Positions 11,140 to 58,625 of a stretch of 64,000 nucleotides of DNA are shown here, piece by piece; position 1 is the first letter of the stretch, and each line of letters begins with the position of its first letter. Source of the DNA: an uncultured delta proteobacterium (GTDB taxonomy: Bacteria > Desulfobacterota > Binatia > HRBIN30 > BPIQ01); contig CAVXGR010000005.1 of NCBI GenBank assembly GCA_963761335.1, positions 229,684-293,683 on the forward strand, given 5' to 3'. Below the pieces are notes generated by a model. The model was not told the DNA's origin. It ran no database searches and was given only the letters and a program-made list of their open reading frames with translations. The position numbers and the translations under genes were made by a program.

Positions 11140-11270
11140 GATCGCCGGAGTGTAAGAAGCTCATGGGGGCAAGTCAATTTATGGGAGCGCGGCCATCCGG
11201 GCCGCATCTCTTCGTTCGCCCCTCCTGCACGCCGCTTGATTCCCCCCGACCCGGGCGATAGCCAGGATCC

Positions 11271-12335: not shown

Positions 12336-12830
12336 AGTGGCTCGGTGGCTCGGTTATCGGGTTGTCGGGTTATCGAGTTTTGGTGATGGTAGCCGGTGGG
12401 TTTCAACCCGCGGCTGTGGCGTTTGGGCGCCTGCGCCCCTGACGGGGCGCGTGCAGAAGCCTGCCAATTTCCCCGGGTTTCACCCGGGGCTACACGCCTG
12501 CGCCCCCTTCGGGGGCGGCATCCGAATCGGCCTCGCCTGCGCCCCCTTCGGGGCGGCATCCGAATCGGCCTCGCCTGCGCCCCGGGGGCGGCATCCGAAG
12601 CGGCCGATGGGCGTCCAACCTCGTCGCCGGGGGTTGAACAGTCTGTCTCAAGACCTCGGCAAAACGATTCCGCAAGCCCGCGAACCAAGTAGAAGCGGCG
12701 TCTCGCCGCTTCGGAAAGCGCCGGGACGGCGCTTCTACCTCGGTTTGAGACAGCTTCTGAGACCCCCGGCTACCATCAACAGACCCGCCAACCCGCCAAC
12801 CCGATAACCGAGCCACCGAGCCACCGGCTT
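12336..12830. mobile_element. composite non-autonomous repeat element bounded by 28-bp perfect inverted repeats
   Basis: GTGGCTCGGTGGCTCGGTTATCGGGTT at 12336-12365 is the exact reverse complement of 12797-12826. The interior holds family-B palindromes (CCCCGGGTTTCACCCGGGG, GCGCCCCCTTCGGGGGCG x3) and one full family-A MITE (12643-12752). Confidence 0.6.
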
Positions 12831-14454: not shown

Positions 14455-14483
14455 TTGACAAACAAACGTTTGTTCCGTTAAAC
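14455..14483 (+). promoter_or_regulatory. promoter with a TTGACA -35 box immediately followed by the perfect palindrome AACAAACGTTTGTT (putative TetR operator)
   Basis: Palindrome at 14461-14474. TTGACA at 14455-14460. Possible -10 box TTAAAC 17 bp downstream. ATG of the DUF35 gene at 14492. The identical palindrome occurs at 52103-52116. Confidence 0.55.
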
Positions 14484-14491
14484 AACCCCGC

Positions 14492-14968
14492 ATGTCGACG
14501 CGCCCGCATCCGGTGAGCGACTCGGTGGAGCCGATGCACCAGGACATCGTCATGGAGTTTCCGTACACGCGCTCCACCGGCGAGACCGTCGGGCGCTTTC
14601 TCGCCGGTCTGAAGGAGCAGAAGAAGATCTGGGGGCGGCGTGTCGCCGGACAGGGCGTGGTCGTGCCGCCGATCGGCTACTCCGAGATCGACGCCTCTCC
14701 TGCCGGCGAATGGGTCGAGGTGAAGGACAGCGGCGAGGTCACCGCCGTCGCCGTGGTGGAGCAGCCGATCGAGCACCTGCATCCGTTCGCGCAGCGCTTT
14801 GCCTTCGTGCTCGTCCGCCTGGATGGCGCCGACACGGCGATGGCGCACGTGGTGAAGGACGATCTCGACAAGCTGCGGGTGGGAGCGCGCGTGCAGGCGG
14901 TGTGGGCGGCGGACGGGCAGCGCGGCGGCACCATTCGCGACATCGAGTGCTTCCGCGTCGTCGGCTGA
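14492..14968 (+). CDS. DUF35 OB-fold protein (thiolase/aldolase-associated)
   Basis: Size and OB-fold pattern match DUF35 proteins that partner SCP-x / Ltp2-type thiolase-like enzymes. First gene of the operon. Confidence 0.6.
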   Translation: MSTRPHPVSDSVEPMHQDIVMEFPYTRSTGETVGRFLAGLKEQKKIWGRRVAGQGVVVPPIGYSEIDASPAGEWVEVKDSGEVTAVAVVEQPIEHLHPFAQRFAFVLVRLDGADTAMAHVVKDDLDKLRVGARVQAVWAADGQRGGTIRDIECFRVVG

Positions 14969-15015
14969 GAACCGCAAAGGGCGCAGAGAGAGGCGCAAAG
15001 GACGCAAAGAAGAGC

Positions 15016-15516
15016 ATGAACGAGCCGCCCCGGGAGCCGATCACCTACATCAAGACGACGGTGCGGCTGCCGTACCACTACGTCGCCGGCGACTACAAGG
15101 CGCGATATCTGCGCGCCCTGAAGGACAAGGTGATCCTCGGCTCGAAGTGCTCGAAGACCGGCAAGGTCTTCGTGCCGCCGCTGGTGAACTCCCCCGAGAG
15201 CTTCGCGCCGGCGGACGAGTTCGTCGAGGTGCCGGACCGCGGTCTGATCACCACCTTCTGCGTGGTCAACATCCCGGTGATCGGCCGCAACCTCGAGCTG
15301 CCCTACGTCGTCGCCTCGGTCGCCCTCGACGGCGCGGCGCTCTCCATCTTCGCCCTGATCCAGGAGGCGAAGCCGGACGAGGTGCGCATGGGCATGCGCG
15401 TCGAAGCGGTGTGGAAGCCCGATGGCGAGCGCCAGGGCAGCCACGAGGACATCCTCTACTTCCGCCCCACCGGCGAGCCCGACGCACCCCTCGAATCCTT
15501 CATCCACCGCCTGTGA
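15016..15516 (+). CDS. DUF35 OB-fold protein with N-terminal rubredoxin-like zinc ribbon
   Basis: Zn-ribbon-like CSKTGKVFVPP segment followed by an OB-fold. A stop 5 nt upstream separates it from the preceding gene. Confidence 0.65.
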   Translation: MNEPPREPITYIKTTVRLPYHYVAGDYKARYLRALKDKVILGSKCSKTGKVFVPPLVNSPESFAPADEFVEVPDRGLITTFCVVNIPVIGRNLELPYVVASVALDGAALSIFALIQEAKPDEVRMGMRVEAVWKPDGERQGSHEDILYFRPTGEPDAPLESFIHRL

Positions 15517-15521
15517 GATCC

Positions 15522-16640
15522 ATGTCGCTGCGCAACGTCGCCGTCGTCGGCTTCGCCCAGGAACCCATCGTCGCCCGTGACCAGCACCGCACGGCGCAGG
15601 AGATGCTCTACCCGCAGGTGCGGCGGGCGCTCGCCGACTGCGGCGTGGCCCGCGACGACATCGACTACCAGGTGGCGGGCTCCGCCGACTACATCGACGG
15701 GCGGCCGTTCGGCTTCGTCGCCTCGCTCGACTACATGGGCTCCTGGCCGCCGCGGCAGGACCTCCATCTGGAGATGGACGCCGCCTTCGCCGCCTATTAC
15801 GCCTGGCTGCGCCTGCAGACCGGCGAATGCGACACCGCCATGGTGGTGGGCTACGGCAAGACCTCGGAGGGCGAGCCCGACGTGGTGCTGAACCTCCAGC
15901 TCGAGCCCTTCTACCAGGGCGCCATCGGCCTCGACCCGACCTCGACCGCAGCTCTGCAGGCGAGCGCCTACATGGCGCGCAGTGGCGCTACGGATCGCAC
16001 CTTCGCGGAGGTGGCGGCGCGCCGCCGCGCCGCCGGGGCCCGCAACCCCGACGCGCAGGTGCGCGAGCCCGCTTCCGCCGACGACCTGCAGCGCACTCCC
16101 TTTGCGGTGGCGCCGCTGCGCCGTGGATACATCCCTCCCGTCGGCGAGAGTGCCGTCTGTCTCATCCTCGCCGCCGAGGGCAAGGCGGAGCGCATGTGCA
16201 GCAAGCCCGCCTGGATTCACGGAGTCGACCAGCGCGCCGAGCTGCAGACCCTGGGGGCGCGCGACCTGTCGCGCAGCGCCGGCGCCCGGATGGCGACGGA
16301 GAAGGCGCTGGCGATGGCCGGCCTCGAGAGTGCCCGCCAGGTCGATGTGCTCGAGCTGATGGCGACCAACCCCGCCGAGGAGCTGATCCTGCGCGAGGCC
16401 ATGGGCGTTGCGGCGGAGGGAGGCGTGCCGGCGGTGAACCCCTCGGGCGGACCGCTCACCGGGAACCCGCTGATGATGACCGGTTTGATTCGCCTGGGCG
16501 AGGTCTTCCGCCAGCTGAGCGGCGCGGCCGCGGCGCACGCCGTGAGCGGCGCCGAGCGCGGCATCGCCCACGCGGTTGAGGGGCAGTGCCTGCAGCAGAA
16601 CGTCGTCTGGGTTCTCGGGCGAGAGCGGAGGTGGAAATGA
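15522..16640 (+). CDS. thiolase-superfamily protein (SCP-x/Ltp2-like, non-canonical, probable aldolase/lyase)
   Basis: Thiolase fold with an NPSGG motif. At the nucleophile position the sequence reads ..EMDAAFAA.. with no Cys, and the GHP motif is replaced by GNPLMMTG. Confidence 0.75.
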   Translation: MSLRNVAVVGFAQEPIVARDQHRTAQEMLYPQVRRALADCGVARDDIDYQVAGSADYIDGRPFGFVASLDYMGSWPPRQDLHLEMDAAFAAYYAWLRLQTGECDTAMVVGYGKTSEGEPDVVLNLQLEPFYQGAIGLDPTSTAALQASAYMARSGATDRTFAEVAARRRAAGARNPDAQVREPASADDLQRTPFAVAPLRRGYIPPVGESAVCLILAAEGKAERMCSKPAWIHGVDQRAELQTLGARDLSRSAGARMATEKALAMAGLESARQVDVLELMATNPAEELILREAMGVAAEGGVPAVNPSGGPLTGNPLMMTGLIRLGEVFRQLSGAAAAHAVSGAERGIAHAVEGQCLQQNVVWVLGRERRWK

Positions 16641-17788
16641 AGCGGCCGGTCGCCGTCGTCGGCGTCGGGCAGACGCATCACAGCTCGCGCCGGGTGGACG
16701 TCAACACCGCCGAGCTGGTGCGTGAAGCGATCGACCGCGCTCTCCTCGACGCCGGTCTCGAGCATCGCGATATCGACGCCATCATCATCGGCAAGGCTCC
16801 GGACATGCTCGAGGGCATCATGCAGCCCGAGCAGCTCCTCATCGGCGCCGTCGGCGGCCATCTCAAGCCCGTCCTGCGCGTGCACACCGCCGGCTCGGTC
16901 GGCGCCTCGACGGCCCTCGCCGGCGTCACCCACGTCACCTCGGGGCTGTTCGACCGCGTGCTGGTGGTCGCCTTCGAGAAGCAGTCGGAGGGCAACGTCA
17001 TGTGGGCGCTGTCGCCGAACATGCCGTTCACGGCGCCGCTGGTGGCCGGGGCGGGCGGCTTCTTCACGCCCTACATCCGCGCCTACATCCGACTGACGGG
17101 GGCGCCGCCGCACATCGGCCCGATGATCGCCGCCAATGCGCGCGCCAACGCCGGCCGCAACCAGTACGCGCACCTGCGCGAGCCGGTGACGGTCGAGGAC
17201 GTCATGCAGTCGCCGATGCTGTGGGACCCGATCCGCTACCTGGAGACCTGCCCGTCGTCGGACGGCGCCGTCGCCCTCGTGATCTCCAGCGAGGAGCAGG
17301 CGCGCAAGGGGCCGCGCAAGCCGGCCTGGGTGAAGTCGGGCGCCTCCTACGCCGAGGCCATGTGGGTGCCGGGCCGCGATCAGGTGAACCCCACGGCCGG
17401 ACGGGTGTGCTCCAAGGCGGTCTATGACGCCGCCGGCATCACCGACCCCTGGAACCAGATCGACGTCGCCGAGATCTACGTGCCGTTCTCGTGGTTCGAG
17501 GCGATGTGGCTCGAGAACCTCGGCTTCTGCGGCCACGGCGAGGGCTGGAAGATCGTCGACCGCGGCGAGCAGAAGTTCGGTGCGCACCTGCCGATCAATC
17601 CCTCCGGCGGCGTGCTGTGCACCAACCCCATCGGCGCCTCCGGCATGCTGCGCCTCGGCGAGGCGGCGCTGCAGGTGATGGGGCGCGCCGGCGAGCATCA
17701 GGTCGAGGGGGCGAAGGTCGCCCTCGGCCACGCCTATGGCGGCGGTGCGCAGTACTTCGCCATGTGGATCGTCGGCAGCGAGCAGTAG
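16637..17788 (+). CDS. thiolase-superfamily protein (SCP-x/Ltp2-like, non-canonical)
   Basis: ATGA start/stop overlap with the previous gene. NPSGG motif. The nucleophile Cys is absent (HTAGSVGAS) and the GHP motif reads TNPIGASG. Confidence 0.75.
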   Translation: MKRPVAVVGVGQTHHSSRRVDVNTAELVREAIDRALLDAGLEHRDIDAIIIGKAPDMLEGIMQPEQLLIGAVGGHLKPVLRVHTAGSVGASTALAGVTHVTSGLFDRVLVVAFEKQSEGNVMWALSPNMPFTAPLVAGAGGFFTPYIRAYIRLTGAPPHIGPMIAANARANAGRNQYAHLREPVTVEDVMQSPMLWDPIRYLETCPSSDGAVALVISSEEQARKGPRKPAWVKSGASYAEAMWVPGRDQVNPTAGRVCSKAVYDAAGITDPWNQIDVAEIYVPFSWFEAMWLENLGFCGHGEGWKIVDRGEQKFGAHLPINPSGGVLCTNPIGASGMLRLGEAALQVMGRAGEHQVEGAKVALGHAYGGGAQYFAMWIVGSEQ

Positions 17789-17871
17789 CTCAGTAGCCCA
17801 GTGGCTCGGTAGGTCTGAGTAACGGGCAACCAGTCGATCTCGGCGCCGCAATTCCTCTCAAGGAGCATTTC

Positions 17872-18684
17872 ATGTCTGAACCGGCCGTCCTCTATTCGAA
17901 GCAGGATCACGTCGCCACCGTCACCCTCAACCGCCCGCAGGTGCGCAATGCCCTCAATGCGGAGATGCTCTGCCGTCTGGCCGACGCCTGGCAGAACATC
18001 ATCGACGACGTCGAGGTGCGCGCCGCCATTCTCACCGGGGCGGGAGAGGACGCCTTCTGCGCCGGCGCCGATCTCGATCGCCTGGTGAGAATGATGCAGG
18101 GGCTGCGGCCACCGGAGGACGAGTTCGACCACCGCATCAAGAACGACGTCACCATCATCTACAAGGGTCTCCTGCGCAACATCGAGGTGCACAAGCCGAT
18201 GGTCGCCGCGGTGAAGGGCTTCTGCGTCGCCGGGGGCATGGAGATCCTGCAGTGCACCGACATCCGCGTCGCCGCCGACGATGCGCAGTTCGGCCTCGCC
18301 GAGGTGAAGTGGAGCCTCTTTCCGATGGGCGGCTCGACGGTGCGGCTGCCGCGACAGATCTCTTACTGTCAGGCGATGGAGATCCTGCTCACCGGCGAGC
18401 GCATCCCGGCGCAGGAGGCGTGGCGCATCGGCCTGATCAACAAGGTCGTGCCGGCGGGAAAGGTGCTGGAGGAGGCGCAGCGCTACGCGTCGCTGCTCGC
18501 CGAGAACGGACCGCTGGCGGTGCAGGCGGTAAAGCGCTCGGTGCTCGCCGGGCTGGGCGTGCCGACGGCGGCGGCGCTCGACAAGGAGTTCGAGATCGGC
18601 GTGCCGGTGTCGATGTCGGAAGACTCGCGGGAAGGGACGAAGGCCTTCAAGGAAAAGCGCAAGCCGGTCTTCAAAGGGAAGTAG
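17872..18684 (+). CDS. enoyl-CoA hydratase/isomerase (crotonase) family protein
   Basis: Crotonase-fold motifs AGADL and GFCVAGGMEIL. RBS AAGGAG lies 8 nt upstream of the start. Confidence 0.85.
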   Translation: MSEPAVLYSKQDHVATVTLNRPQVRNALNAEMLCRLADAWQNIIDDVEVRAAILTGAGEDAFCAGADLDRLVRMMQGLRPPEDEFDHRIKNDVTIIYKGLLRNIEVHKPMVAAVKGFCVAGGMEILQCTDIRVAADDAQFGLAEVKWSLFPMGGSTVRLPRQISYCQAMEILLTGERIPAQEAWRIGLINKVVPAGKVLEEAQRYASLLAENGPLAVQAVKRSVLAGLGVPTAAALDKEFEIGVPVSMSEDSREGTKAFKEKRKPVFKGK

Positions 18685-32720: not shown

Positions 32721-34357
32721 CGCGGTTCTCCGTGGTCGGACTGCTGGTGGGTTTCCGCCGTTGTCGGAACGGCGGGGGCGAACGCCGTGCCGGGAAGGCC
32801 GCCGAGGAGGCGGGTGAGCTCGGCCAGACGCCGGTGGAAGTCGGCGAGCGCCTCTTCGTAGCTCAGCTGCACGGCGCGCTGGTTGCGCTCCGCGTCGATG
32901 AGGGCGAGGAAGCTGTTGCCGCCGCTCTCAAATCCGGCGCGCGCCGCCTGCACCTGATCGCGGGCGGCGGGCAGCAGGCGGCCGAGGTAGAGGTCGACGA
33001 TGTGGTGCATCTCCAGCAATCGCGCCGCCGTTTGCTCGACGTCGGAGCGGACGTCGTCAATGAGGCGCTGGCGCTCGCTCTCTGCCTGCTGCAGCTTGGC
33101 GCGCGCCTCGGCTTCGGCGGCGTCGAGACGCCCGCGCCAGATCGGCAGGTTGACAGAGGCGCCAATCATCCAGCGGTGCTCCTCGTCGTTCCACATCGAG
33201 TTGTATGAGCTGGTGAGGCCGAAATCCGGATAGCGCTCCAGCCCGGCCAGCTCCACGGCGGCGCGGCGGCCGCGGACATCGGCGGCGGCCATCGCCAGCT
33301 CCGGTCGCCGTTCGACGGCGAGATCGGCGAGGCGATCGACATCGGTGTGGGCCATCTGCAGCAGCGGGCTCTCGGTGGGCGGCGGCAGCATCTTTGGCGG
33401 CGGCGGCAGCGGCGCCGCATAAGATCGGTGCAGCAGCGTGTTGATGCGGGCGACGAGCACGTCGCGGTCGGTTGCCAGGGTCACCTTGCGGTGCTCCAGG
33501 TGCGCCAGCTCGACCTCGGCCGCCAGCGGCTCCTGCTGCGACAGACGTCCGGCGGCGTACTGGTCGGTGGCGGCGCGCTTGAGCGCGGCGAGCAGGCGGA
33601 CGTGCTCGTCGTTGATCTCGTCGGCGCGGTCGAGAAGGTAGTAATCGTAGAAGAGAAAGGTCGCCGCCAGAGCCGTCTCCAGGCGCAGCGAGTCGTACGC
33701 CTGCCGGCTCGATTCCGCCTCGGCGAGGGCCGCCTCGCCGCGCAGCCGCAGCTTTCCCGGCCAGGGGAGCTTCTGTGAGAGCTCGATCTGCTGGCCGTAG
33801 TCGACGCTGCTCGAGCCGATGCTCAGGGGCGCCAAGCCGTAGGCGAACATCGGATCGTCGAGCGCCGTGGCTTGCGGGTAGCGCGCTACGGTGGCGGTCC
33901 AGGCGCTGCGCAGCGCCGCCAGGCTCGGGTTGCGGCGCAGCACGGCGCGCCGCAGCTCGTCGACGTCGAGCACGGCTTCGCCCTGAAAGAGCGGCGCGTC
34001 ACTGAACGCGGCGCCCCGCCGCGTAGTGAGGAGGCGGGACGCCTCCTCTACAGTGGACGCGGCGTCCCGCCGCGTGGTGAGGAGGCGGGACGCCTCCTCT
34101 ACAGTAGACGCGGCGTCCCGCCGCGTGGTGAGGAGGCGGGACGCCTCCTCTACAGTGGACGCGGCGTCCCGCCGCGTGGTGGGGAGGTGGGACGCCTCCT
34201 CTACAGTGGACGCGGCGTCTCGCCGCGTGGTGGGGAGGCGGGACGCCTCCTCTACTTTGGGCCGCGGCCCGGAGCAGCCGGAACCACCGGCGGCGATGAT
34301 CAGCATCGAGCTCCAGAGCACGCGAGCGATAGGTCGTCGCATGTGCAGTACTCCCAC
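32717..34357 (-). CDS. TolC-family outer-membrane efflux lipoprotein (CusC/CzcC-like)
   Basis: Lipobox (AAGGSGCSG) and paired outer-membrane-factor repeats. ATGA overlap with the adaptor gene. Confidence 0.8.
   Translation of the reverse strand: MGVLHMRRPIARVLWSSMLIIAAGGSGCSGPRPKVEEASRLPTTRRDAASTVEEASHLPTTRRDAASTVEEASRLLTTRRDAASTVEEASRLLTTRRDAASTVEEASRLLTTRRGAAFSDAPLFQGEAVLDVDELRRAVLRRNPSLAALRSAWTATVARYPQATALDDPMFAYGLAPLSIGSSSVDYGQQIELSQKLPWPGKLRLRGEAALAEAESSRQAYDSLRLETALAATFLFYDYYLLDRADEINDEHVRLLAALKRAATDQYAAGRLSQQEPLAAEVELAHLEHRKVTLATDRDVLVARINTLLHRSYAAPLPPPPKMLPPPTESPLLQMAHTDVDRLADLAVERRPELAMAAADVRGRRAAVELAGLERYPDFGLTSSYNSMWNDEEHRWMIGASVNLPIWRGRLDAAEAEARAKLQQAESERQRLIDDVRSDVEQTAARLLEMHHIVDLYLGRLLPAARDQVQAARAGFESGGNSFLALIDAERNQRAVQLSYEEALADFHRRLAELTRLLGGLPGTAFAPAVPTTAETHQQSDHGEPR
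34015..34265. repeat. in-frame tandem repeat, 51 bp x about 5, encoding VEEASRL(P/L)TTRRDAAST in the N-terminal linker of the outer-membrane factor
   Basis: Each DNA unit carries two GC-rich hairpins (GAGGAGGCgggacGCCTCCTC; GGACGCgGCGTCC). Confidence 0.8.
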
Positions 34358-48970: not shown

Positions 48971-49891
48971 CTATTTCACTGCCAGAGGGTTGAGGGGTGA
49001 GCCGACGCCGCCGGTCACCTTGAGGGGCGGCGCGCTGAAGAGAAACTCGTAGACGCCGTCGGCGGCGCAGTCGGCGGCGAGATCGCCGAGGTCGAACATC
49101 TCGCCCAGCGTCAGACCCATGTCGCGGATGCACAGCAGGTGGAGCGGCAGCGGCGTGCTGGCGTCCTCGAAGGGAATCACCTCGACGGCGTTGGTGTCGC
49201 TCGCCACGGCCGCCACCTCGCGGGCGTGCAGCCACTCGGCGCAGGCGACCCCGAGACCGGGCATCTGGCGCATGTAGCCGACGCGGTCTCCATCCTTCTT
49301 GAAGACGTCGAGGTGGCCGGTGCGAATGAGCAGGACGTCGCCGGACTCGGCGCGGACGCCGGCGGCGCGCTCGGCGGTCTCGAGATCACCGGGACCGATG
49401 ACGCGGCCGGGCGGCAGTCGATCGACGCCGGCGGCGCGGGCGAGGTCGAGGAGCACGCCGCGGGAGACGATGCCGGCGCCCACCTTGTCGATGCCGTTGC
49501 GGGCCGCCCCGGCGGGCGTGATCGTCGAGGCGGGATAGCCGTTGTAGAGCTGTCCGCCGTAGTGGACGTGCGCCAGGCTGTCCCACTGGGTGGCGCACTG
49601 CAGCGGCATGACGACGACGTCGTCGGAGTAGCGGAAGCCCTCCGGGTCGGGACCGATCTGTCCGGCCACGGCGCTCATCAGGTGCAGTGGGTTGACGCGC
49701 CCGCCCTGGCCGATCTGGGGCCCCTCGGCGCCGAAGTTGAGACCGAGGCTGAAGACGTCGCCGCGCTTCACGCGGGCGGCGCCGCGCCGCACCACCTCCG
49801 GGGTGATGAAGTTGAGAGTGCCGCGCTCGTCGTCCGCGCCCCAGCGCCCCCAGTTCGAGACCCTCTTCGCGAGAGCGCGTACCTTCTCCAT
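48971..49891 (-). CDS. putative cyclase family protein (kynurenine-formamidase-like fold)
   Basis: 306 aa. Pattern ..HVHYGGQLYNGY.. and ..DLLIRTGH.. is typical of the putative-cyclase family. Last gene of the tetR-P450-fdx operon. Confidence 0.6.
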   Translation of the reverse strand: MEKVRALAKRVSNWGRWGADDERGTLNFITPEVVRRGAARVKRGDVFSLGLNFGAEGPQIGQGGRVNPLHLMSAVAGQIGPDPEGFRYSDDVVVMPLQCATQWDSLAHVHYGGQLYNGYPASTITPAGAARNGIDKVGAGIVSRGVLLDLARAAGVDRLPPGRVIGPGDLETAERAAGVRAESGDVLLIRTGHLDVFKKDGDRVGYMRQMPGLGVACAEWLHAREVAAVASDTNAVEVIPFEDASTPLPLHLLCIRDMGLTLGEMFDLGDLAADCAADGVYEFLFSAPPLKVTGGVGSPLNPLAVK

Positions 49892-49907
49892 GGTTGCCGG
49901 CGCCGCC

Positions 49908-50102
49908 TCAGTCTTCGACGATCGAGAGCGCCTGGCGCGGGCAGAGCCGCACCGCTTCCTCCACCTTGCTGCGCAGAGACTCGGGCGGTCGCTCCTGCTT
50001 GAGATGGGCCTTGTCGTCGTCCTCGACGACGAAGACCTCGGGCGCCGCCTTCTGGCACTTCGCGTTTCCCTCACACAGATCGTAATCGACCACGACTCTC
50101 AT
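49908..50102 (-). CDS. small [3Fe-4S]/[4Fe-4S] ferredoxin, P450 redox partner type
   Basis: 64 aa. C-x5-C ... CP cluster ligands (DLCEGNAKC .. LCPRQA). Immediately downstream of the P450. Confidence 0.75.
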   Translation of the reverse strand: MRVVVDYDLCEGNAKCQKAAPEVFVVEDDDKAHLKQERPPESLRSKVEEAVRLCPRQALSIVED

Positions 50103-50156: not shown

Positions 50157-51368
50157 TCAACCCGCCGCCGGCGTGAAGCGCACCGGCATCCGCTTGATTC
50201 CGGCGATGAAGTTGGAGCGCAGGCGCGCCACCGGCCCGGCCAGCTCGATGTCGGGGAGACGGCGCAGCAGCTCCGCGAACATGAGGCGGATCTCCAGGCG
50301 CGCCAGATTGGAGCCGAGGCAGAAGTGCTCGCCGATGCCGAAGGCGAGGTGGTTGTTGGGCGTGCGGCCGACGTCGAAGTGGTCGGGTGCCGCGAAGACG
50401 TCCTCGTCGCGGTTGGCGGAGATGTAGTAGATCACCACCTTGTCGCCCTCGCGGATCCGGTGGCCGCGCAGCTCGGTGTCGCGGGTCGCGGTGCGGCGGA
50501 AGTGGGTCACCGGGGAAACCCAGCGCAGCATTTCCTCGACGGTGGTGTCGATGAGCGACGGATCGGCGAGCAGGCGGGCGCGCTGCTCGGGGTGCTCGAT
50601 GAGCGCCAGCATACCGCCGGAGATGAGGTTGCGGGTGGTTTCGTTGCCGGCCACGGCGAGCAGCAGGAAGAAGAGGTCGAACTCGAGCTCGCTGAGCTGC
50701 TGGCCGTCCACCTCGCCGTTCATCAGCACGCTCACCAGGTCGTCGCCGGGGTGCTGGCGCCGCTCGATGGCGAGCTGGTTGGCGTAGACGTACATCTCGG
50801 TGGCGGCGATCTTGCCGTCCTCCAACGAGGTCTGGAACTCCGGGTCGTCGAAGCCGATCAGCCGATTGCTCCACTCGAACAGCTTGTGCCGATCCTCCAG
50901 CGGGATTCCCATCATCTCGGCGATGACCTGCAGCGGCAGCTCGCAGGCGATGTCGGCGACGAAGTCGCACTCGCCGCGCGCCGCCACCTTGTCGACGATG
51001 AGGCGCGCCTGCTCGCGAATGCGGGGCTCGAGGCGGCTGATCATGCGCGGCGTGAAGCCGCGGCTCACCAGCGAGCGCAGCTTGGTGTGCTTCGGCGGGT
51101 CCTGATTGAGCATCATCAGCTGCATCTGTTGCAGGTCCTCCTCCGCCGGCTCGAAGAGGAAGGTCGCCCGGCGCTCGGAGGAGAAGGTGCGGGGATCGCG
51201 AGACACGGTGATGACGTCGGCGTGCTTGGTGACCGCCCAGAAGCCGGGTCCCTGCGGGTCGGGATGCCAGAACACCGGCGCCTCGGCGCGCAGGCGCGCG
51301 AAGGCGGCGTGCGGCACGCCCTTCTCCCAGAGGTCCTGGCTGTAGAGATCGATGTCGGACAGGCTCAT
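50157..51368 (-). CDS. cytochrome P450 monooxygenase
   Basis: Haem-thiolate loop FGIGEHFCLG. EEMLRW (ExxR). I-helix AGNETT. Confidence 0.9.
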   Translation of the reverse strand: MSLSDIDLYSQDLWEKGVPHAAFARLRAEAPVFWHPDPQGPGFWAVTKHADVITVSRDPRTFSSERRATFLFEPAEEDLQQMQLMMLNQDPPKHTKLRSLVSRGFTPRMISRLEPRIREQARLIVDKVAARGECDFVADIACELPLQVIAEMMGIPLEDRHKLFEWSNRLIGFDDPEFQTSLEDGKIAATEMYVYANQLAIERRQHPGDDLVSVLMNGEVDGQQLSELEFDLFFLLLAVAGNETTRNLISGGMLALIEHPEQRARLLADPSLIDTTVEEMLRWVSPVTHFRRTATRDTELRGHRIREGDKVVIYYISANRDEDVFAAPDHFDVGRTPNNHLAFGIGEHFCLGSNLARLEIRLMFAELLRRLPDIELAGPVARLRSNFIAGIKRMPVRFTPAAG

Positions 51369-51410: not shown

Positions 51411-52088
51411 TCAGCGCCTGCGCACGGCGCGCGGCCGCGCTCGGCCGGCGCCGAGAAGCTCCGCCACGGCGGTCTTGAGGAAGCGGCGTTGCCGTTGCAG
51501 CGCTGCGGGATCGAGGGGATCGCCCTGCATCACCGTCTGCAGGAGCTTGGCGTTGGCGAAGTAGCCGAAGATCAGCAGGTAGAGGCCGGCGGCGAGGTGC
51601 GGCAGCTCCTCCGCCGTCCACGGCCCGCCGCTGCTGGCCAGCACCTGCACGCCTTCGGCGTAGACGGGCCGCAGGAGCCGGGTGATGGTGCTGCGCAGGT
51701 AGCGGCTGTCGTCGAGCGCGGCGCGCTGGATCAGCCGCGGCAGCTGCGGATGCTCGACCAGGTAATCGAACATGCGGTCGAGGAAGTGATCGACGACGCC
51801 CGCCTCGACGGCGGCGCCGCTCCCCTTCTCGGCATCGACGCGGGCGCTCTCCGCCACCAGCTCGAGAACCGGATCGAGGCCGCGCGCTAGCGCCGCCTCG
51901 TAGAGCGCCCGCTTGTTGCGGAAATGGTTGTAGAGGCTGGCCTGGTTCTTCAGCCCCGCCTCGGCGGCGATGCCGCGCACCGAGACCCCGGCGAAGCCGC
52001 TCTCCGCGAAGCGCCGCTCCGCGGCGTCGAGGATCAGATCCCGCGTCGACCGCGCCTCGGCCTTGCGCGCCGCGCCGCTGCCAGCCAT
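51411..52088 (-). CDS. TetR/AcrR-family transcriptional regulator
   Basis: N-terminal HTH (GFAGVSVRGIAAEAGLKNQASLYNHFRNKRALY). First gene of the P450 operon. Confidence 0.85.
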   Translation of the reverse strand: MAGSGAARKAEARSTRDLILDAAERRFAESGFAGVSVRGIAAEAGLKNQASLYNHFRNKRALYEAALARGLDPVLELVAESARVDAEKGSGAAVEAGVVDHFLDRMFDYLVEHPQLPRLIQRAALDDSRYLRSTITRLLRPVYAEGVQVLASSGGPWTAEELPHLAAGLYLLIFGYFANAKLLQTVMQGDPLDPAALQRQRRFLKTAVAELLGAGRARPRAVRRR

Positions 52089-52096
52089 GCGCCCTG

Positions 52097-52122
52097 TTAC
52101 AAAACAAACGTTTGTTCGTCAA
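52097..52122 (-). promoter_or_regulatory. tetR promoter/operator: TTGACG -35 box immediately followed by the perfect palindrome AACAAACGTTTGTT
   Basis: Palindrome at 52103-52116, 15 nt upstream of the tetR ATG (52088). Same sequence and architecture as 14455-14474. Confidence 0.55.
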
Positions 52123-52125
52123 GCC

Positions 52126-52322
52126 GCCAAGGCGAACCGCAGAGGCGCCGAGGGTGCAGAGAAAGGACACCGCCACGATCCGTTACCGGCGTCCCTTCGC
52201 CTGGGGCGTTGCCCCAGGCTGTTGAATTGCGCCCATTCGGGGCTGGAGTGGTCCGAATCTCCCTCGGCGTCCTTGGCGAGCTTCTCCTCTGCGCCCTCGG
52301 CGCCTTGGCGGTTCGCCTTGGC
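52126..52322. repeat. 36-bp imperfect inverted repeat (33/36 matching) flanking a structured segment of about 125 bp in the tetR-dxs intergenic region
   Basis: GCCAAGGCGAACCGCAGAGGCGCCGAGGGTGCAGAG versus CTCTGCGCCCTCGGCGCCTTGGCGGTTCGCCTTGGC. Internal hairpin CCTGGGGcgttgCCCCAGG. Confidence 0.5.
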
Positions 52323-52411
52323 GGCTCTTTGCACCGGTTCTGCACGATCTCTCTGCTGGAATTCCTCGCCGCGGCTCTGCAGTCGTCAAACTCGTATGCT
52401 CTTCTGGGGGC

Positions 52412-54241
52412 ATGAAAGATCAGCTCTCCGCCGCGACCCGTCTGGCTCCGGATGTCTCGCCGCCGCTGCCGGCTCTCGAATATCTGCGGGGGCCGGAGGA
52501 CGTCAGGCGGCTGTCGCCGGCGCAGCTGCAGAGGCTCGCCGAGGAGATGCGCGAGTTTCTCATCGACGCGGTCACCCGCATCGGCGGGCACCTCGGGGCC
52601 GGGCTCGGCGTCGTCGAGCTGACCATCGCGCTGTTCGCCGAGCTCGATCTGAACGATGGCGACAAGCTGGTGTGGGACGTCGGCCACCAGTGCTATCCGC
52701 ACAAGCTGCTCACCGGGCGGGCTCGCGGTTTCGAGTCGCTGCGCCGCCGCGGCGGCATGTCGGGCTTTCCGGATCCGCGCGAGTCGAGCTGGGACACGGT
52801 GAAGACCGGGCACGGGGGCACCAGCATCTCCACCGCCGCCGGCTTCGCCCTCGCCTGGAAGCACGCCGGAGCAGACCCGGAACGGCGCGCCGTGGCGGTG
52901 ATCGGCGACGGCGCCCTGCAGGAAGGCAGCGCCTACGAGGCGCTGCATCACGCCGGCAGCATTGCCGACCTGCCGCTGATCGTCGTCCTCAACGACAACG
53001 GCATGTCGATCAGCCCCAGCGCCGGGGCTCTTCCCGGCCTTCTCGATCGGCAGGGCCGCTCGGGCGGCGACAACTTCTTCGAGCAGCTCGGCTTCCGCTA
53101 CTGCGGTCCGTTCGACGGTCACGACATCGAGGCCGTGCGCCGGGCGCTGCGCACCGCCCGCTGCGAGCCGGGGCCGGTGGTGCTGCACCTGCTGACTCGC
53201 AAGGGACGCGGCTACCGCGACGGCGAGCCCGAGCACACCTGCTATCACGCCGTCTCCGCCGCGGGCGGTGGCGCTGTCGAGTATCCGCAGCAGGGCGGGC
53301 CGAGCTTCACTGCGGCGTTTGCCGACGCCGCCATCGCCATGGCGGAGGAGGATCCGCGCCTGGTGGTGGTCACCGCGGCGATGCTCGAAGGGACCGGGCT
53401 GGTGAAGTTCCAGCGGCGCTTCCCGGATCGCTGCCACGACGTCGGCATGGCGGAGCAGCACGCCGTGGCGCTGGCGGCCGGCTTGGCGCTCGCCGGCCGG
53501 CGGCCGATCTGCGCCATCTACTCGACCTTCCTGCAGCGCGCCTACGACCAGGTGTTCCAGGAGGTGGCGCTGCAGCGCGCCCGGGTTCTCTTCTGTCTCG
53601 ACCGCGGCGGCCTGGTGGGCTCCGACGGCGCCACTCACAACGGCGTCTTCGACGTCGGCTATCTCCGCTGCCTGCCGAACCTGGCGCTGATGGCGCCGCG
53701 CGACATCGGCGAGCTGGCGCAGATGATGCGCCTCGCCTGGGAATGGGATGGACCGGTGGCCATCCGTTTCCCGCGCGGCAGCGGCGCGCGGCCGGAGTGG
53801 CAGCTGCCGCATGCGCCGCTCACCTTCGGCCGCGCCGAGCGCGTCGCCCCGGGGGAGGACGGGTGCATCCTCGCCTACGGGGCGATGACCTATGCGGCCC
53901 TGGAAGTACGGCGGCGCCTGCTCGCCGAGAGCGGCGTGCGGCTGGCCGTGGTCAACGCGCGCTTCGCCAAGCCTCTCGACGAGGACCTGATCGCCGAGGA
54001 GCTACAGCGGCAGCCGGTGGTCTTCACCCTCGAGGATCACGCCCTCAGCTGCGGCTTCGGCGCCGCCGTCGCCGAGCTGGCGCACACCCGCCTGTCGGGG
54101 CAGATGGACAGCGGCCGCCTCTGCCTCCTCGGTATTCCCGATCGCTTCTTCGACCACGCCGAGCGCGCCGAGCAGCTCGAGGAGGCCGAGCTTGGTGTCG
54201 ATCAGATCAAGGGGCGGGTTGTTAGGTTGTTAGGTTGTTAG
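52412..54241 (+). CDS. dxs: 1-deoxy-D-xylulose-5-phosphate synthase
   Basis: TPP-binding GDGALQEGSAYEAL plus transketolase-like pyrimidine and C-terminal domains. The last 8 codons and the stop are encoded by the octamer repeat array. Confidence 0.9.
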   Translation: MKDQLSAATRLAPDVSPPLPALEYLRGPEDVRRLSPAQLQRLAEEMREFLIDAVTRIGGHLGAGLGVVELTIALFAELDLNDGDKLVWDVGHQCYPHKLLTGRARGFESLRRRGGMSGFPDPRESSWDTVKTGHGGTSISTAAGFALAWKHAGADPERRAVAVIGDGALQEGSAYEALHHAGSIADLPLIVVLNDNGMSISPSAGALPGLLDRQGRSGGDNFFEQLGFRYCGPFDGHDIEAVRRALRTARCEPGPVVLHLLTRKGRGYRDGEPEHTCYHAVSAAGGGAVEYPQQGGPSFTAAFADAAIAMAEEDPRLVVVTAAMLEGTGLVKFQRRFPDRCHDVGMAEQHAVALAAGLALAGRRPICAIYSTFLQRAYDQVFQEVALQRARVLFCLDRGGLVGSDGATHNGVFDVGYLRCLPNLALMAPRDIGELAQMMRLAWEWDGPVAIRFPRGSGARPEWQLPHAPLTFGRAERVAPGEDGCILAYGAMTYAALEVRRRLLAESGVRLAVVNARFAKPLDEDLIAEELQRQPVVFTLEDHALSCGFGAAVAELAHTRLSGQMDSGRLCLLGIPDRFFDHAERAEQLEEAELGVDQIKGRVVRLLGC

Positions 54242-54460
54242 GTTGTTAGGTTGTTAGGTTGTTAGGTTGTTAGGTTGTTAGGTTGTTAGGTTGTTAGGTT
54301 GTTAGGTTGTTAGGTTGTTAGGTTGTTAGGTTGTTAGGTTGTTAGGTTGTTAGGTTGTTAGGTTGTTAGGTTGTTAGGTTGTTAGGTTGTCAGCTCAGTC
54401 GTTGAAGAGGGTTCATCCGTACCTAACAACCAACAACTCAACAACTTAACAACCTGCCCT
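54225..54460. repeat. tandem array of about 22 copies of the octamer GGTTGTTA, followed after a spacer by about 4 inverted copies (TAACAACC-like)
   Basis: Read directly from the sequence. The dxs stop codon TAG lies in the third unit. The 3' inverted copies can pair with the array to form a hairpin. Confidence 0.9.
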
Positions 54461-54510
54461 CAAGAACAATCAGGCTTGACTGTTTGTTTGTGATTCGCTA
54501 GCTTCACCGG

Positions 54511-55146
54511 ATGCCGATCGCAGCAGCGGTGAGGGCGCGGCGCACCCAGGCGGAGCGCAGCGCGGCAATGCAGGCGCGCCTGCTCGACGCGGCGCTCGAC
54601 TGTCTGGTCGAGCACGGCTACGCCGGCACCACCACCACCCTGGTCGCCGAGCGCGCCGGGGTATCCCGCGGCGCCCAGCTGCACCACTACCCGACGCGCG
54701 CCGCGCTGGTCTCCGCCGCCATCGAGCACCTCTTTGCCCGGATGACCGAGGAGTACGTCGACGGCTTCGCCCGCCTCGCCCCGGGCGCCGACCGCCTGCG
54801 CGCCGCCGTCGACATGCTCTGGTCGATGTACGCCAGGCCGCCCTACGCCGCCGTCCTCGACCTCTACATCGCGGCGCGCACCGACGCCGAGCTGCGCGCC
54901 CATCTGAAGCCGATCGCCGAACGCCATCAGGAGAACGTCTTCCGCCTGGCGCGCCGCTACTTTCCCGAGGCGGCGCGCCACAATCCCGATTTCGACGTCA
55001 CCCTGGAGCTGGTTCTCGACGCCATGCAGGGCATGGCGGTGTCGCGCTTCGTGCACGGGCGCGCCGCCGCCGGGGCTCGACGCCTGGAGGCCGTGCAGCA
55101 GATCGCCGCCCGCGCCCTGCGTTTCCGTGTTCCCGGGAGGAAGTGA
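54511..55146 (+). CDS. TetR/AcrR-family transcriptional regulator
   Basis: N-terminal HTH (GYAGTTTTLVAERAGVSRGAQLHHYPTRAAL). The promoter has TTGACT followed by GTTTGTTTG. Confidence 0.85.
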   Translation: MPIAAAVRARRTQAERSAAMQARLLDAALDCLVEHGYAGTTTTLVAERAGVSRGAQLHHYPTRAALVSAAIEHLFARMTEEYVDGFARLAPGADRLRAAVDMLWSMYARPPYAAVLDLYIAARTDAELRAHLKPIAERHQENVFRLARRYFPEAARHNPDFDVTLELVLDAMQGMAVSRFVHGRAAAGARRLEAVQQIAARALRFRVPGRK

Positions 55147-55150
55147 AGCG

Positions 55151-56014
55151 ATGCCCGACCTGACCATCTATGCCATCCCGGCGTTCTTCGCCCTGATGAT
55201 CGCCGAGGGAGTGCTCGCCGGCGCCACCGCCATGCGCGGCTACGAGTCCCGCGACACCGCCGCCAGCCTCGCCATGGGCGTCGGCAACGTGCTCATCGAC
55301 CTGCTGATGAAGGGCGTTCACCTGGCGTTGCTCTTCTGGGTGGCGCAGCACGCCGTGCTTCACCTCGGGCACGCGTGGTGGTCGTGGGTGCTGCTGCTGG
55401 TCGCCGGCGACCTGGTCTACTACTGGTTTCACCGCCTGCACCACGAGGTGCGCTTTCTGTGGGCGGCGCACGTGAATCATCACTCCAGCCAGCGCTACAA
55501 CCTGTCGACGGCGCTGCGGCAGTCGTGGACCACGCCCTTCACCATCATGCTCTTCTGGTGGCCGCTCGCCCTCATCGGCTTCGACCCGCTGATGATCATG
55601 GCGGCCATCGCCATCAACACCGTCTACCAGTTCTGGATCCACACCGAGGCCATCGGCCGGCTGGGCGTGCTCGAATGGGTGCTCAACACCCCGTCGCATC
55701 ACCGCGTCCACCACGGCGCCAACGTCGAGTACCTGGACCGCAACTACGGCGGCATGTTCATCGTCTGGGACTTTCTCTTCGCCAGCTTCGAGCCGGAGCG
55801 GGCCCGGGTGCGCTACGGGCTCACCAAGAACATCGACACCTTCAACCCGGTGAAGATCGCTTTCCACGAGTGGATCGCCATGCTCGGCGACGCCTGGCGC
55901 GCCGATTCCTGGCGCGACCGCATGGCGCATCTGCTCCAGCCCCCCGGCTGGAGCCCCGACGGCTCAACGCTCACCGCCCGCGAAATGCAGGCCGCCCCTA
56001 CCGCTGCCGGGTGA
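55151..56014 (+). CDS. sterol desaturase / fatty-acid hydroxylase superfamily membrane protein
   Basis: Three His boxes: HRLHHE, HVNHHS and HHRVHHG. Start lies 4 nt after the TetR stop. Confidence 0.8.
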   Translation: MPDLTIYAIPAFFALMIAEGVLAGATAMRGYESRDTAASLAMGVGNVLIDLLMKGVHLALLFWVAQHAVLHLGHAWWSWVLLLVAGDLVYYWFHRLHHEVRFLWAAHVNHHSSQRYNLSTALRQSWTTPFTIMLFWWPLALIGFDPLMIMAAIAINTVYQFWIHTEAIGRLGVLEWVLNTPSHHRVHHGANVEYLDRNYGGMFIVWDFLFASFEPERARVRYGLTKNIDTFNPVKIAFHEWIAMLGDAWRADSWRDRMAHLLQPPGWSPDGSTLTAREMQAAPTAAG

Positions 56015-56039: not shown

Positions 56040-56710
56040 CGGCTCACCAGCAGACGATGAAGATGAGGCTGGGGATCTGCCCCGTAGAGAGATTTGGCGG
56101 TTCTCGCCTGGGCGAAGTTCGCCCCGGAGGGGCGGTGGCGTGTAGCCCCGGATGAAACCCGGGGAAAAATGCGCGCTCCGTCATAGGCGCCCCGCCAGGG
56201 GGCGCGGGCAGATTTTCGTCGATGTCGCGCCTGTACGCCGATGATCACCGCTGGGTGCGTGGGAAGCTCATCAACGTGATTCACGCGGCCCCTACGCCTG
56301 CGCCCCTCCGGGGCGCTGATCTGGGCAATCGGAACGCGGTCCCCGGGTTGGCACCCGGGGAAAAATGCGCGCTCCGTCATAGGCGCCCCGCCAGGGGCGC
56401 GGGCAGATTTTCGTCGATGTCGCGCCTGTACGCCGATGATCACCGCTGGGTGCGTGGGAAGCTCATCAACGTGATTCACGCGGCCCCTACGCCTGCGCCC
56501 CTCCGGGGCGCTGATCTGGGCAATCGGAACGCGGTCCCCGGGTTGGCACCCGGGGCTACATGCCCGCGCCCCTCCGGGGCGATAATCTCCACCCCAAGCG
56601 CCGGGGCTCCGAGAGACCCTCCGGGGCGATAAGCCTCCACCCCAGCGCCGGGACTCCGCCAGACCTTCACCCAATAGATTTTCGAAGCAGGCTACTTTTG
56701 CGGCTCGAGG
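56040..56710. repeat. family-B MITE-like element in reverse orientation with an internal tandem duplication of about 205 bp
   Basis: 56150-56350 and 56355-56560 are near-identical. The ends match the reverse complement of the 35600-36010 ends. Confidence 0.7.
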
Positions 56711-56760: not shown

Positions 56761-58188
56761 TCAGCCCCAGATGGGCGGGCGGCGGTCGCGCCAGGGGCGG
56801 GCCTCTTCGAGCTGCGCCGCCAGGCGGAAGAGCGTCGCCTCGTCGCCGAAGCGGCCGGTGAACATGAGGCCGACGGGAAGGCCGTCGGCGGTCCAGTGCA
56901 ACGGCAGCGAGATCGCCGGCTGGCCGGTGGCGTTCTGCATCGGCGTGAAGGGCACGTACTCCATCACCGGGGCCATCGCCTTCATCGGGTCCTTCTCCTG
57001 GATGTCGATCGTGCCGAGGCGAATCGGCGGCGATGCCAGCGTCGGCGTCAGCCAGCAGTCATAGGTCTGGTGGAAGCGCGCGATCTGGCGCGAGGCCATC
57101 TGCAGCATCGCCATCGAAAGATGATACTGGCTCGCGGGCACCTGCTTCCCCTGCTGATAGAGGGCCCAGGTGAGCCCCTCGAAGTCCCCTTCGCTCGGCG
57201 TGCGGCCGTTCATGAGACCGAAGCCCTCGATCATCGCGGCGTGAGCCGAGAGGAAGACGGAGAGGAAGGCGCCGCTGAGCATGCCGACGTCGACCGGCGG
57301 AGACGACTCCTCGAGCGTGTGTCCCAGCTCCTCGAGCAGCTTGGCGGTCGACTCCACGGCGGCGACGCACTCCGGGTGCAGGGCCGCGCCACTCGGTGAT
57401 CGCGTCGCGAAGGCGATGCGCAGGCGGCCGGGCGGCGTTCCGGTCTCCTCGAGGAACGGCCGCTTCACCGGCGGCGCCCAGTACGGATCGCCGGGCTCGG
57501 GGCCGTGGGTGCAGTCGAGGGCGGCGGCGCTGTCGCGAACCGTGCGGCTGACGACACCCTCGACGACAATGCCGCCGGCGAAGTCGCCGATGTCCGGCCC
57601 CATCGGGTTGCGGGCCCGCGTCGGCTTGAGACCGACGAGACCGCAGCACGATGCCGGAATGCGAATCGAGCCGCCGCCGTCATTGGCGTGCGCCAGCGGG
57701 ACGATCCCCGCAGCCACGGCGGCGGCGGAGCCGCCACTGGATCCGCCGGTCGAGTGATCGGGGTTCCACGGATTGCGTGCCGGCCCGTAGAGCGCCGACT
57801 CGGTGGTCGGCAGGATGCCGCATTCGGGCGCGTTGGTCTTGCCCAGCGGAATTAGGCCCGCCGCCTTGAAGCGCACCACCAGCGTATCGTCGCGGTGCGC
57901 CGGCACTCCCACCATGAAGCGGCAGGCCGACGCCGTCGGCACGCCCTCGAGGTTGCCGAGGATGTCCTTGAGGAGAAACGGCACACCGCCGAAGGCGCCG
58001 TTCGCCGGTTGCGCCGCGGCGCTGCGGGCGCGGTCGTAGATCTTGTAGACGACCGCGTTCAGCTGCGGGTTGTGTCGCTCGATGCGCGCAATCGCCTCAT
58101 CGACGAGCTCGGCAGGAGTGACCTCGCCGCGGCGCACGAGATCCGCGAGGCCGAGGCCGTCATGGGCGGCATATTCGGAAAAGGACAT
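56761..58188 (-). CDS. amidase (amidase-signature family)
   Basis: [14 protein letters not shown] amidase-signature motif and Ser-cisSer-Lys context. 475 aa from MSFSEY. Confidence 0.85.
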
Positions 58189-58408
58189 GCGCGCACGATT
58201 AGCGCCGCGGCCGCCGCGGTTCAATGGCGGAGGAGAGCCGAGGGGGACTGGCTCCTCTTCGGCTCGAGTGGCGCACTTCGAACGGCGTGTCGCTCGCCGC
58301 CGAAGAGGTGCCTGTCCCCCACCGCCGCGCGCCGCTGGGGACAGGCAACTCTTGCCGTCGGAGGGCGGCAGTTTTCCCGTTTGGTGGTGGCCGGCAAAGT
58401 AGCCTGCT

Positions 58409-58625
58409 TCGAAAATCTGTTGGGTGAAGGTCTGGCGGAGTCCCGGCGCTGGGTGGAGGCTTATCGCCCCGGAGGGGCGTAGGCATGTAGCCCCGGGTGT
58501 CAACCCGGGGACTGCGGTTCCGATTGGCCCAGATCAGCGCGCCGGAGGGGCGCAGGAGTAGAGGCCGCGTGAATCACGTCGATGAGCTTCCCACGCACCC
58601 AGCGGTGATCATCGGCGTACAGGCG
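58409..58625. repeat. family-B MITE-like element, 5' portion
   Basis: Above 90% identical to 35621-35855. Confidence 0.7.

Follow-up and report, generated by a model that had tools for sequence, protein, structure and literature searches.

A putative TetR operator set within a probable leaderless promoter at the head of a P450 operon in an uncultured member of the Binatia

The tetR gene, its promoter and its operon

The stretch of DNA analysed here, 64 kb in length and referred to as the window throughout, carries on its minus strand a gene for a TetR-family regulator that is followed by genes for a P450 and a putative cyclase/hydrolase. The promoter ahead of the regulator gene and the genes themselves comprise the following features.

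52117..52122, minus strand: -35 hexamer TTGACG, directly abutting the palindrome, in the position equivalent to the conserved TTGACA of relatives
52103..52116, no strand: putative operator, a perfect 14-bp palindrome, AACAAACGTTTGTT, filling the promoter spacer
52102-52100, minus strand: TTG between palindrome and -10, read from the sequence
52094..52099, minus strand: -10-like hexamer TAACAG, after a 17-nt spacer; in relatives only the TA is conserved
52093-52089, minus strand: GGCGC between -10 and ATG, read from the sequence
52086..52088, minus strand: ATG of tetR and predicted (leaderless) transcription start, 5 nt after the -10, with no Shine-Dalgarno (SD) sequence
51411..52088, minus strand: tetR, encoding a 225-aa TetR-family regulator of an uncharacterised subfamily (PF00440, 1.8e-13, plus TetR_C_29)
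50157..51368, minus strand: second gene, a CYP125/CYP124-like P450 of 403 aa (PF00067) with an SD of its own (GGAG)
48971..50074, minus strand: third gene, a putative cyclase/hydrolase (PF04199)

Read along the minus strand, these elements follow one another in the order C-TTGACG, AACAAACGTTTGTT, TTG, TAACAG, GGCGC and ATG. The palindrome between the promoter boxes upstream of tetR is therefore real, as the original prediction had it, and the layout and coordinates given there (52097-52122, which run from the -35 hexamer through the palindrome and halfway into the -10) were accurate apart from the distance to the ATG; this had been put at about 7 nt and is really 5 nt from the -10-like hexamer and 14 nt from the palindrome. 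TAACAG is a weak -10 by E. coli standards, and a scan for E. coli-type promoters and terminators made no call at the tetR site, the hexamer being without T at position 6. This blank was rejected as counter-evidence, since the scan needs a T at that very position and relatives keep only the TA. The whole intergenic region upstream of tetR measures 323 bp (52089-52411).

The PF00440 domain spans residues 19-66 and places the protein among the TetR helix-turn-helix (HTH) regulators. Its AF2 model is all-helical, with 10 helices and a pLDDT of 88.7, and a Foldseek search with this model returned TetR-family structures only among the 50 matches listed, with TM-scores of up to 0.80. Its neighbours in the PDB, by sequence as well as by fold, are generic (BkaR/Fad35R, RutR, PsrA/PA3006 and FadR, at about 20% identity), and no NCBIfam family scored above its cut-off. 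The P450 matches CYP125MRCA (1.3e-173), CYP124, a methyl-branched lipid omega-hydroxylase (6e-106), and CYP125, a steroid C26-monooxygenase (1.5e-104), in the PDB.

That the TetR gene heads a P450 operon, as had been proposed, is borne out by several lines of evidence: tetR, the P450 gene and the cyclase gene are co-directional, the gaps between them are short (42 nt, then 82 nt), no promoter-like or terminator-like site was found in these gaps, and the synteny of tetR and P450 is kept in 42 of 71 related loci. The sole terminator-like match of the three-gene stretch lies within the P450 ORF and is at chance level. The cyclase, too, is found downstream of tetR in 10 related loci, whether or not a P450 lies in between.

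An identical site ahead of a second operon

Allowing up to three mismatches, the palindrome occurs at exactly two sites in the 64-kb window (14461-14474 and 52103-52116), both of them exact, as compared to 0.19 sites per window expected from a shuffle control; from base composition (the DNA has 68% G+C), 8.7e-6 exact copies would be expected. The site at 14461 precedes a set of genes on the plus strand.

14455..14460, plus strand: twin -35 hexamer TTGACA, read from the sequence
14461..14474, no strand: twin of the putative operator, an exact match to the 14-mer
14479..14484, plus strand: twin -10-like hexamer TAAACA, after an 18-nt spacer; the ATG at 14492 comes 7 nt later
14492..18684, plus strand: predicted target operon behind the twin site (DUF35, second DUF35-like ORF, two thiolases, hydratase)
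14492-14968, plus strand: DUF35/ChsH2-OB, first gene of this operon
~15016-15516, plus strand: second DUF35-like ORF of about 166 aa, starting MNEPPREPITYIK and hidden beneath longer overlapping ORFs
15147-16640 (ORF), plus strand: Ltp-like thiolase A
16586-17788, plus strand: Ltp-like thiolase B (Ltp model match)
17872-18684, plus strand: EchA19-like enoyl-CoA hydratase (EchA19 model match)

The twin site reads TTGACA, palindrome, CCGT, TAAACA, ACCCCGC and ATG (14492). The two sites had been described as twins, and they do share both the 14-mer and the layout; moreover, the DUF35 operon bears the site in other genomes too. The tetR operon and the DUF35 operon lie 38 kb apart in the window's genome, and the cassette is kept at both. 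As the NCBIfam match of thiolase A begins at residue 128 of the ORF, its true start is probably near 15525. The two Ltp-like thiolases match PRK07937 and PRK08313, and relatives likewise have two DUF35 genes. Genes for the degradation of steroid rings were not seen in the window.

Conservation of the promoter-operator cassette

Relatives of the TetR were sought with one genome per species, which gave 74 loci, mostly at 50-71% protein identity and all from MAGs labelled Binatia, 'Deltaproteobacteria' or Chloroflexota/Dehalococcoidia. A cassette recurs in these loci that consists of TTGACA, AAC(A/G)AACGTTTGTT, N4, TAnnnn, N6-8 and ATG. With up to four mismatches allowed, tetR is immediately preceded by the palindrome in 47 of the 72 loci having upstream sequence, and in others the palindrome heads an operon that ends in tetR; together with its identity to a probe bound by another TetR protein (PaaR, see below), this argues for the predicted autoregulatory operator.

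A scan for the palindrome only (up to two mismatches) in 722 kb of related DNA yielded 51 sites in 46 loci plus the window. TTGACA, with at most one mismatch, abuts the palindrome at 46 of these sites (chance rate 0.4%), and a TA follows at offset +4/+5 past the palindrome at 41 and at +3/+4 in three more, the window's tetR site being among the latter. The spacer is 18 nt long at most sites, as opposed to 17 nt at the tetR promoter of the window. In the information profile of the 51 sites, TTGACA reaches 1.3-1.9 bits and the two positions of the TA 1.2 and 1.5 bits, with high values for the palindrome that are partly built in by choosing the sites through a palindrome match, the flanks being unbiased. 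Elsewhere the information does not exceed 0.7 bit (0.34 bit upstream of the -35), and the four positions before the TA are low. Such a profile is the signature of a putative -35 box, an operator-filled spacer, a TAnnnn -10 and a transcript that would start at the start codon. That operator and -35 invariably adjoin could indicate either a joint spread of operator and promoter through the regulon or a contact between the regulator and RNA polymerase.

More distant TetR relatives, at about 30% identity, are encoded on Novosphingobium/Sphingobium megaplasmids; a plasmid collection yielded relatives at this level only. They have different neighbouring genes and a different conserved palindrome, AGTTATAGATCGATAACT, so that the operator appears specific to the orthologue group of Binatia and Chloroflexota. 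The sphingomonad palindrome was located in the divergent intergenic region beside a conserved hypothetical gene (L076, 4905-4935; L077, 4913-4940).

The start of the tetR transcript

The ATG at 52088 is the first start codon past an upstream in-frame stop, and apart from it no ATG, GTG or TTG occurs in frame before codon 36, which lies well within the HTH domain. In an alignment of 29 homologues, invariant residues set in from T15 on, with about 13-15 variable residues ahead of them, and the ATG is the only in-frame start ahead of the conserved helix alpha-1. It is the only usable start, and the tetR mRNA must consequently begin at or upstream of 52088. No SD of the GGAG type is present at this start (anti-SD duplex of -3.1 kcal/mol); the DUF35 start at the twin site also lacks such a motif (+1.2 kcal/mol), and SD-bearing genes of the window, taken as control, have GGAG- or GAGG-type motifs with duplexes of about -7 to -11 kcal/mol.

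An ATG or GTG is found 14-19 nt after the palindrome at 41 of the 51 sites, for which about 15% were estimated by chance. Counting the tetR-proximal sites, an ATG lies 15-21 nt after the palindrome in 40 of 47 and a GTG in four. The stretch between the TA and the start codon contains no conserved or purine-rich sequence, and the -10-like hexamer ends 5 nt before the ATG in the window versus 6-8 nt in most relatives, a distance that serves as a proxy for a leaderless start, although the shorter gap in the window is a point against this reading. The absence of an SD together with a preference for AUG, as is characteristic of leaderless genes, is likewise found here. From these features we infer that the tetR transcript begins at, or within 1-2 nt of, the ATG and that its mRNA is leaderless. 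The promoter had originally been called near-leaderless, and the fixed TA of the -10, the ATG or GTG 14-19 nt on and the lack of a conserved or purine-rich stretch in between uphold this in substance; however, the wording should be strengthened, as leaderless outright is what these features suggest.

The layout has left its trace in public databases, where the gene calls of the homologues P0111 and P0119 begin at the TTG of the -35 hexamer, with the N-termini LTNKRSF and LTNERLF, that is, with the operator translated. Such calls are a systematic mis-annotation caused by the leaderless layout.

Similar promoters occur elsewhere in the window. The second TetR gene, at 54511 (plus strand), has a leaderless-looking promoter of TTGACT, N17, TAGCTT, N6 and ATG; a gene for a luciferase-like monooxygenase (interval 11231-11273) shows TTGATT, N17, TAGCCA, N6 and its ATG at 11271 (plus strand); and the gene at 10372-11139 on the minus strand (interval 11140-11180) is perhaps leaderless, with TTGACT, N17, TACACT, N9 and ATG. 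In view of these, leaderless starts seem to be common in the organism and not peculiar to tetR.

Genes behind the cassette

In the related loci, the cassette precedes DUF35 operons in L008, L009, L015, L022 and probably L002; in L002 and L009 it is a DUF35-thiolase operon that ends just before tetR, and an operon of DUF35, two thiolases and an enoyl-CoA hydratase (ECH) is found immediately upstream of tetR in many genomes. P450 genes are preceded by the site in L001 and L039, the P450 gene of the latter lying further upstream of tetR, and in L040 and L069 the site stands ahead of an acyl-CoA synthetase gene that is located upstream of tetR on the same strand. Other genes led by it encode a WS/DGAT (L036), an enoyl-CoA hydratase (L043) and a paralogous TetR (L039:8875).

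For a view that is not anchored on tetR, metagenome contigs were scanned with the 20-mer of TTGACA and palindrome. It was met in 108 stretches; 80 loci were returned, and the first downstream ORF was callable at 75 matches. These ORFs comprise 30 DUF35, 21 TetR, 9 P450 and 1 ECH, and the remaining 14 include WS/DGAT, acyl-CoA synthetase, acyl-CoA dehydrogenase, GDSL lipase and amidohydrolase. The TetR genes behind the 20-mer include visibly more divergent ones (L106, L127 and L152).

Judged by homology, this gene content points to activation, terminal oxidation and beta-oxidative/retro-aldol shortening of branched or sterol-like side chains and looks like a branched-lipid or sterol side-chain catabolic regulon, whose proposed members are the CYP125/124-like P450, the DUF35/Ltp thiolases, the EchA19-like hydratase, acyl-CoA synthetase and WS/DGAT. 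Going one step further, we tentatively suggest that one stereotyped module may be the shared control unit of an undescribed regulon for sterol, hopanoid or methyl-branched-lipid side chains in uncultured Binatia and Chloroflexota, under a new KstR-like TetR subfamily with a PaaR-type operator; this wider proposal is possible, with the balance of probability tilted against it.

Comparison with characterised regulators

PaaR (TTHA0973) of Thermus thermophilus HB8 is a TetR-family repressor of phenylacetate catabolism (PMC6651687), whose effector is phenylacetyl-CoA according to the title of a reference cited there (ref 11 in PMC6651687). Its consensus, selected by REPSA, is AACnAACGTTnGTT, and the 'wt' probe AACAAACGTTTGTT was bound in vitro with a KD of 5.4 nM (PMC6651687). 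PaaR is encoded by the first gene of the operon that it represses, and its native site is found at -3, counted from the start codon of this gene (PMC6651687). The palindrome of the window is an exact match to the PaaR consensus probe. However, the two sites differ in position, at the start codon in Thermus and in the spacer between -35 and -10 in the window, and in what they control, the paa regulon in Thermus as compared to a CYP125-like P450 and a DUF35-thiolase-ECH operon in the window. No paa genes were found behind the operator in the window, the related loci or the metagenome contigs, which does not fit a PaaR regulon. What is claimed is a shared putative operator and not family membership.

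PsrA of Pseudomonas recognises half-sites of the form (C/G)AAAC...GTTT(G/C) with a spacing of N2-4 (PMC13104628). A site that overlaps its promoter provides for autoregulation; PsrA also governs genes of beta-oxidation and is responsive to long-chain fatty acids (PMC13104628). The half-sites of the window's operator are the same, but their spacing is N0 as opposed to N2-4, and hence the site differs from a PsrA operator. With respect to the protein, PsrA/PA3006 (2fbq) is among the best PDB matches by sequence and by fold, at about 21% identity in the fold match, and the Vibrio PsrA model is the second-best NCBIfam match of the window's TetR; the PsrA equivalog cut-off of 300 is not reached (43.3 bits, covering the HTH region only).

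The closest functional analogue is KstR, given the CYP125/CYP124-like P450 and the Ltp and EchA19 model matches in the window. KstR of Mycobacterium and Rhodococcus is an autoregulated TetR repressor of cholesterol catabolism with targets such as cyp125, ltp3/ltp4-type thiolases and echA19, its motif is TnnAACnnGTTnnA, and many mycobacterial transcripts are leaderless. Set against this motif, the window's palindrome differs in that AAC and GTT are contiguous (AACGTT) instead of 2 nt apart, and KstR is absent from the best 60 PDB sequence matches of the window's TetR. As far as promoter architecture is concerned, PLtetO-1 is comparable, its TetR operator sitting exactly between TTGACA and the -10 hexamer. 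That promoter is synthetic, whereas the arrangement in the window is natural and joined to what is predicted to be a leaderless start.

Proposed mode of action and alternatives

We consider it likely that the 14-mer is the operator of the adjoining TetR, set on a leaderless promoter of the sigma-70 type, and that it serves autorepression as well as co-repression of the DUF35 operon. The symmetry and size of the palindrome fit one TetR dimer, and with its 14 bp and its overlap with the regulator's own promoter it agrees with TetR-type autoregulatory operators, which are palindromes of about 14-20 bp. A TetR dimer on the spacer would keep RNA polymerase off both the -35 and the -10. With tetR as the first gene, repression would be autogenous and common to the P450 and the cyclase, and through the identical site at 14461 the same TetR would also repress the DUF35-thiolase-hydratase operon. 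By analogy with PaaR, PsrA and KstR, release is assumed to be ligand-induced; the ligand would presumably derive from lipids, the most likely candidates being an acyl-CoA and an intermediate of the branched or sterol-like kind. What the sequences show directly is the layout, the rarity of the site, its conservation, its co-occurrence with the regulator and the genes behind it; from these we infer that the TetR binds there, which way it regulates, where transcription starts and what kind of ligand it would respond to. The original suggestion of tight autorepression agrees with the location of the operator in the promoter spacer, even if the word "tight" is drawn from geometry.

Another regulator, be it a paralogous TetR or an unrelated factor, might bind the palindrome, which would make the adjoining tetR merely a target. 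Paralogous TetRs (40-45% identity) occur in several loci, and as the one at L039:8875 carries the same operator and cassette, binding by a paralogue or cross-talk is conceivable; the more divergent TetR genes led by the 20-mer point in the same direction. We nevertheless regard this as unlikely: the window contains a single TetR of this group, the similarity of its second TetR (54511) is confined to the HTH, at 37% identity, and the promoter sequences differ, and the motif tracks the orthologue group across two phyla and is lost in the relatives at about 30% identity.

A related question is where transcription starts. If the palindrome were a TetR operator acting as a roadblock and the promoter were located further upstream, in or beyond the 205-bp hairpin described below, tetR would have a long leader. 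Such a scenario would leave the near-invariant TTGACA, the TA 18 nt on and the constant 6-8 nt to the ATG unexplained, and so too the missing SD; furthermore, there is no conservation upstream of the -35, and none of the related loci has the hairpin. It is therefore improbable, despite the room that the 323-bp intergenic region offers for another promoter, the weak -10 hexamer at tetR and the leaders of 24-72 nt that many DUF35 genes of relatives have after the same cassette.

As for the direction of regulation, the TetR would act as an activator or dual regulator if it remodelled an over-long 18-bp spacer in the manner of MerR. In favour of this, 46 of 51 promoters place the site identically with respect to the -35, most of them with an 18-nt spacer, and so fixed a geometry is more typical of activators; moreover, there are TetR proteins, PsrA among them, that activate as well as repress (PMC13104628). 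On the other hand, the tetR promoter of the window has the optimal 17-nt spacer, and PaaR, which prefers the same site, is a repressor. Strong repression is classically obtained with an operator in the spacer, engineered tetO promoters being an example, and we know of no TetR-family precedent for spacer-based activation, all of which makes an activator very improbable. Finally, a palindrome of chance or structural origin (an AclI-type AACGTT, an RNA hairpin or an AT-rich spacer) is hardly credible in the face of the expected count of 8.7e-6 and of a symmetric conservation over 14 bp in two phyla, even if promoter spacers tend to be AT-rich. A role in RNA structure was rejected, as the palindrome lies upstream of the predicted transcription start and would thus not be transcribed, and as RNA it would yield no more than a weak, A/U-rich stem with some 5 pairs.

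Autorepression by the adjoining TetR from a leaderless promoter, the reading favoured here, would be a standard case: the site is a predicted TetR autoregulatory operator, and its putative mechanism is textbook TetR biology. The added value lies in a rigidly conserved promoter-operator module whose core is the PaaR consensus probe and which appears to serve a lipid side-chain regulon in two uncultured phyla. It provides a candidate regulatory code, comprising operator, promoter geometry and regulon members, for the Binatia, an abundant uncultured soil lineage, and for the Chloroflexota, and suggests that a conserved set of genes serves to oxidise and shorten side chains of the isoprenoid or sterol type. 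In addition, it offers a ready-made pair of operator and putative repressor, the 14-mer being already known to be bound by one TetR protein (PaaR) at nanomolar affinity, and draws attention to a systematic fault of gene callers, which take the TTG of the -35 as a start and so carry ORFs into the promoter.

Repeats and structured elements in the window

Between tetR and the divergent dxs gene lies a 205-bp element (52122-52326) with 40-nt inverted repeat ends (93% complementary), which abuts the first T of the tetR -35 hexamer and folds into a single long hairpin (-141.5 kcal/mol, z = -8.5). In its middle part (52200-52244, plus strand) it resembles the Rfam motif Acido-Lenti-1, with 33.4 bits (E of 4e-6 to 8e-6), which falls short of the gathering score of 37. 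As part of the switch the element was rejected, since no related locus has it and the window contains a single copy; an insertion of the MITE or REP type is conceivable, as is a structured RNA. A further Acido-Lenti-1 motif, at 58465-58510 on the minus strand, scores 40 bits against the same gathering score of 37, is without the long flanking inverted repeat and lies just upstream of, or overlaps, the predicted start of an amidase gene (56761-58503, minus strand). Acido-Lenti-1 was described from Acidobacteria and Lentisphaerae, whereas the present genome looks like one of the Binatia.

On the other side of dxs, a tandem array at 54217-54390 consists of 21.8 copies of (GGTTGTTA) with 100% matches, starts within the last 25 nt of the gene and is followed by degenerate complementary copies at about 54421-54455. 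The array is AT-rich in a genome of 68% G+C and lies upstream of the second TetR gene (54511-55146), which encodes an unrelated protein with a PF00440 domain, 37% identical over the HTH only, and has GTTTGTTTG in its promoter spacer. The end of this gene overlaps the start of a gene of the fatty-acid hydroxylase family at 55127-56014 (interval 54474-56014).

Other tandem repeats are found at 34006-34255 (51 bp, 4.9 copies, 95% matches), 56157-56555 (195 bp, 2.0 copies, 99% matches), 56570-56665 (47 bp, two copies) and 12495-12605 (38 bp, three copies). A dispersed repeat family is suggested by the 47-bp unit (CCCTCCGGGGCGATAAGCCTCCACCC...), which resembles the sequence on the flank of the Acido-Lenti-1 copy at 58420-58470.
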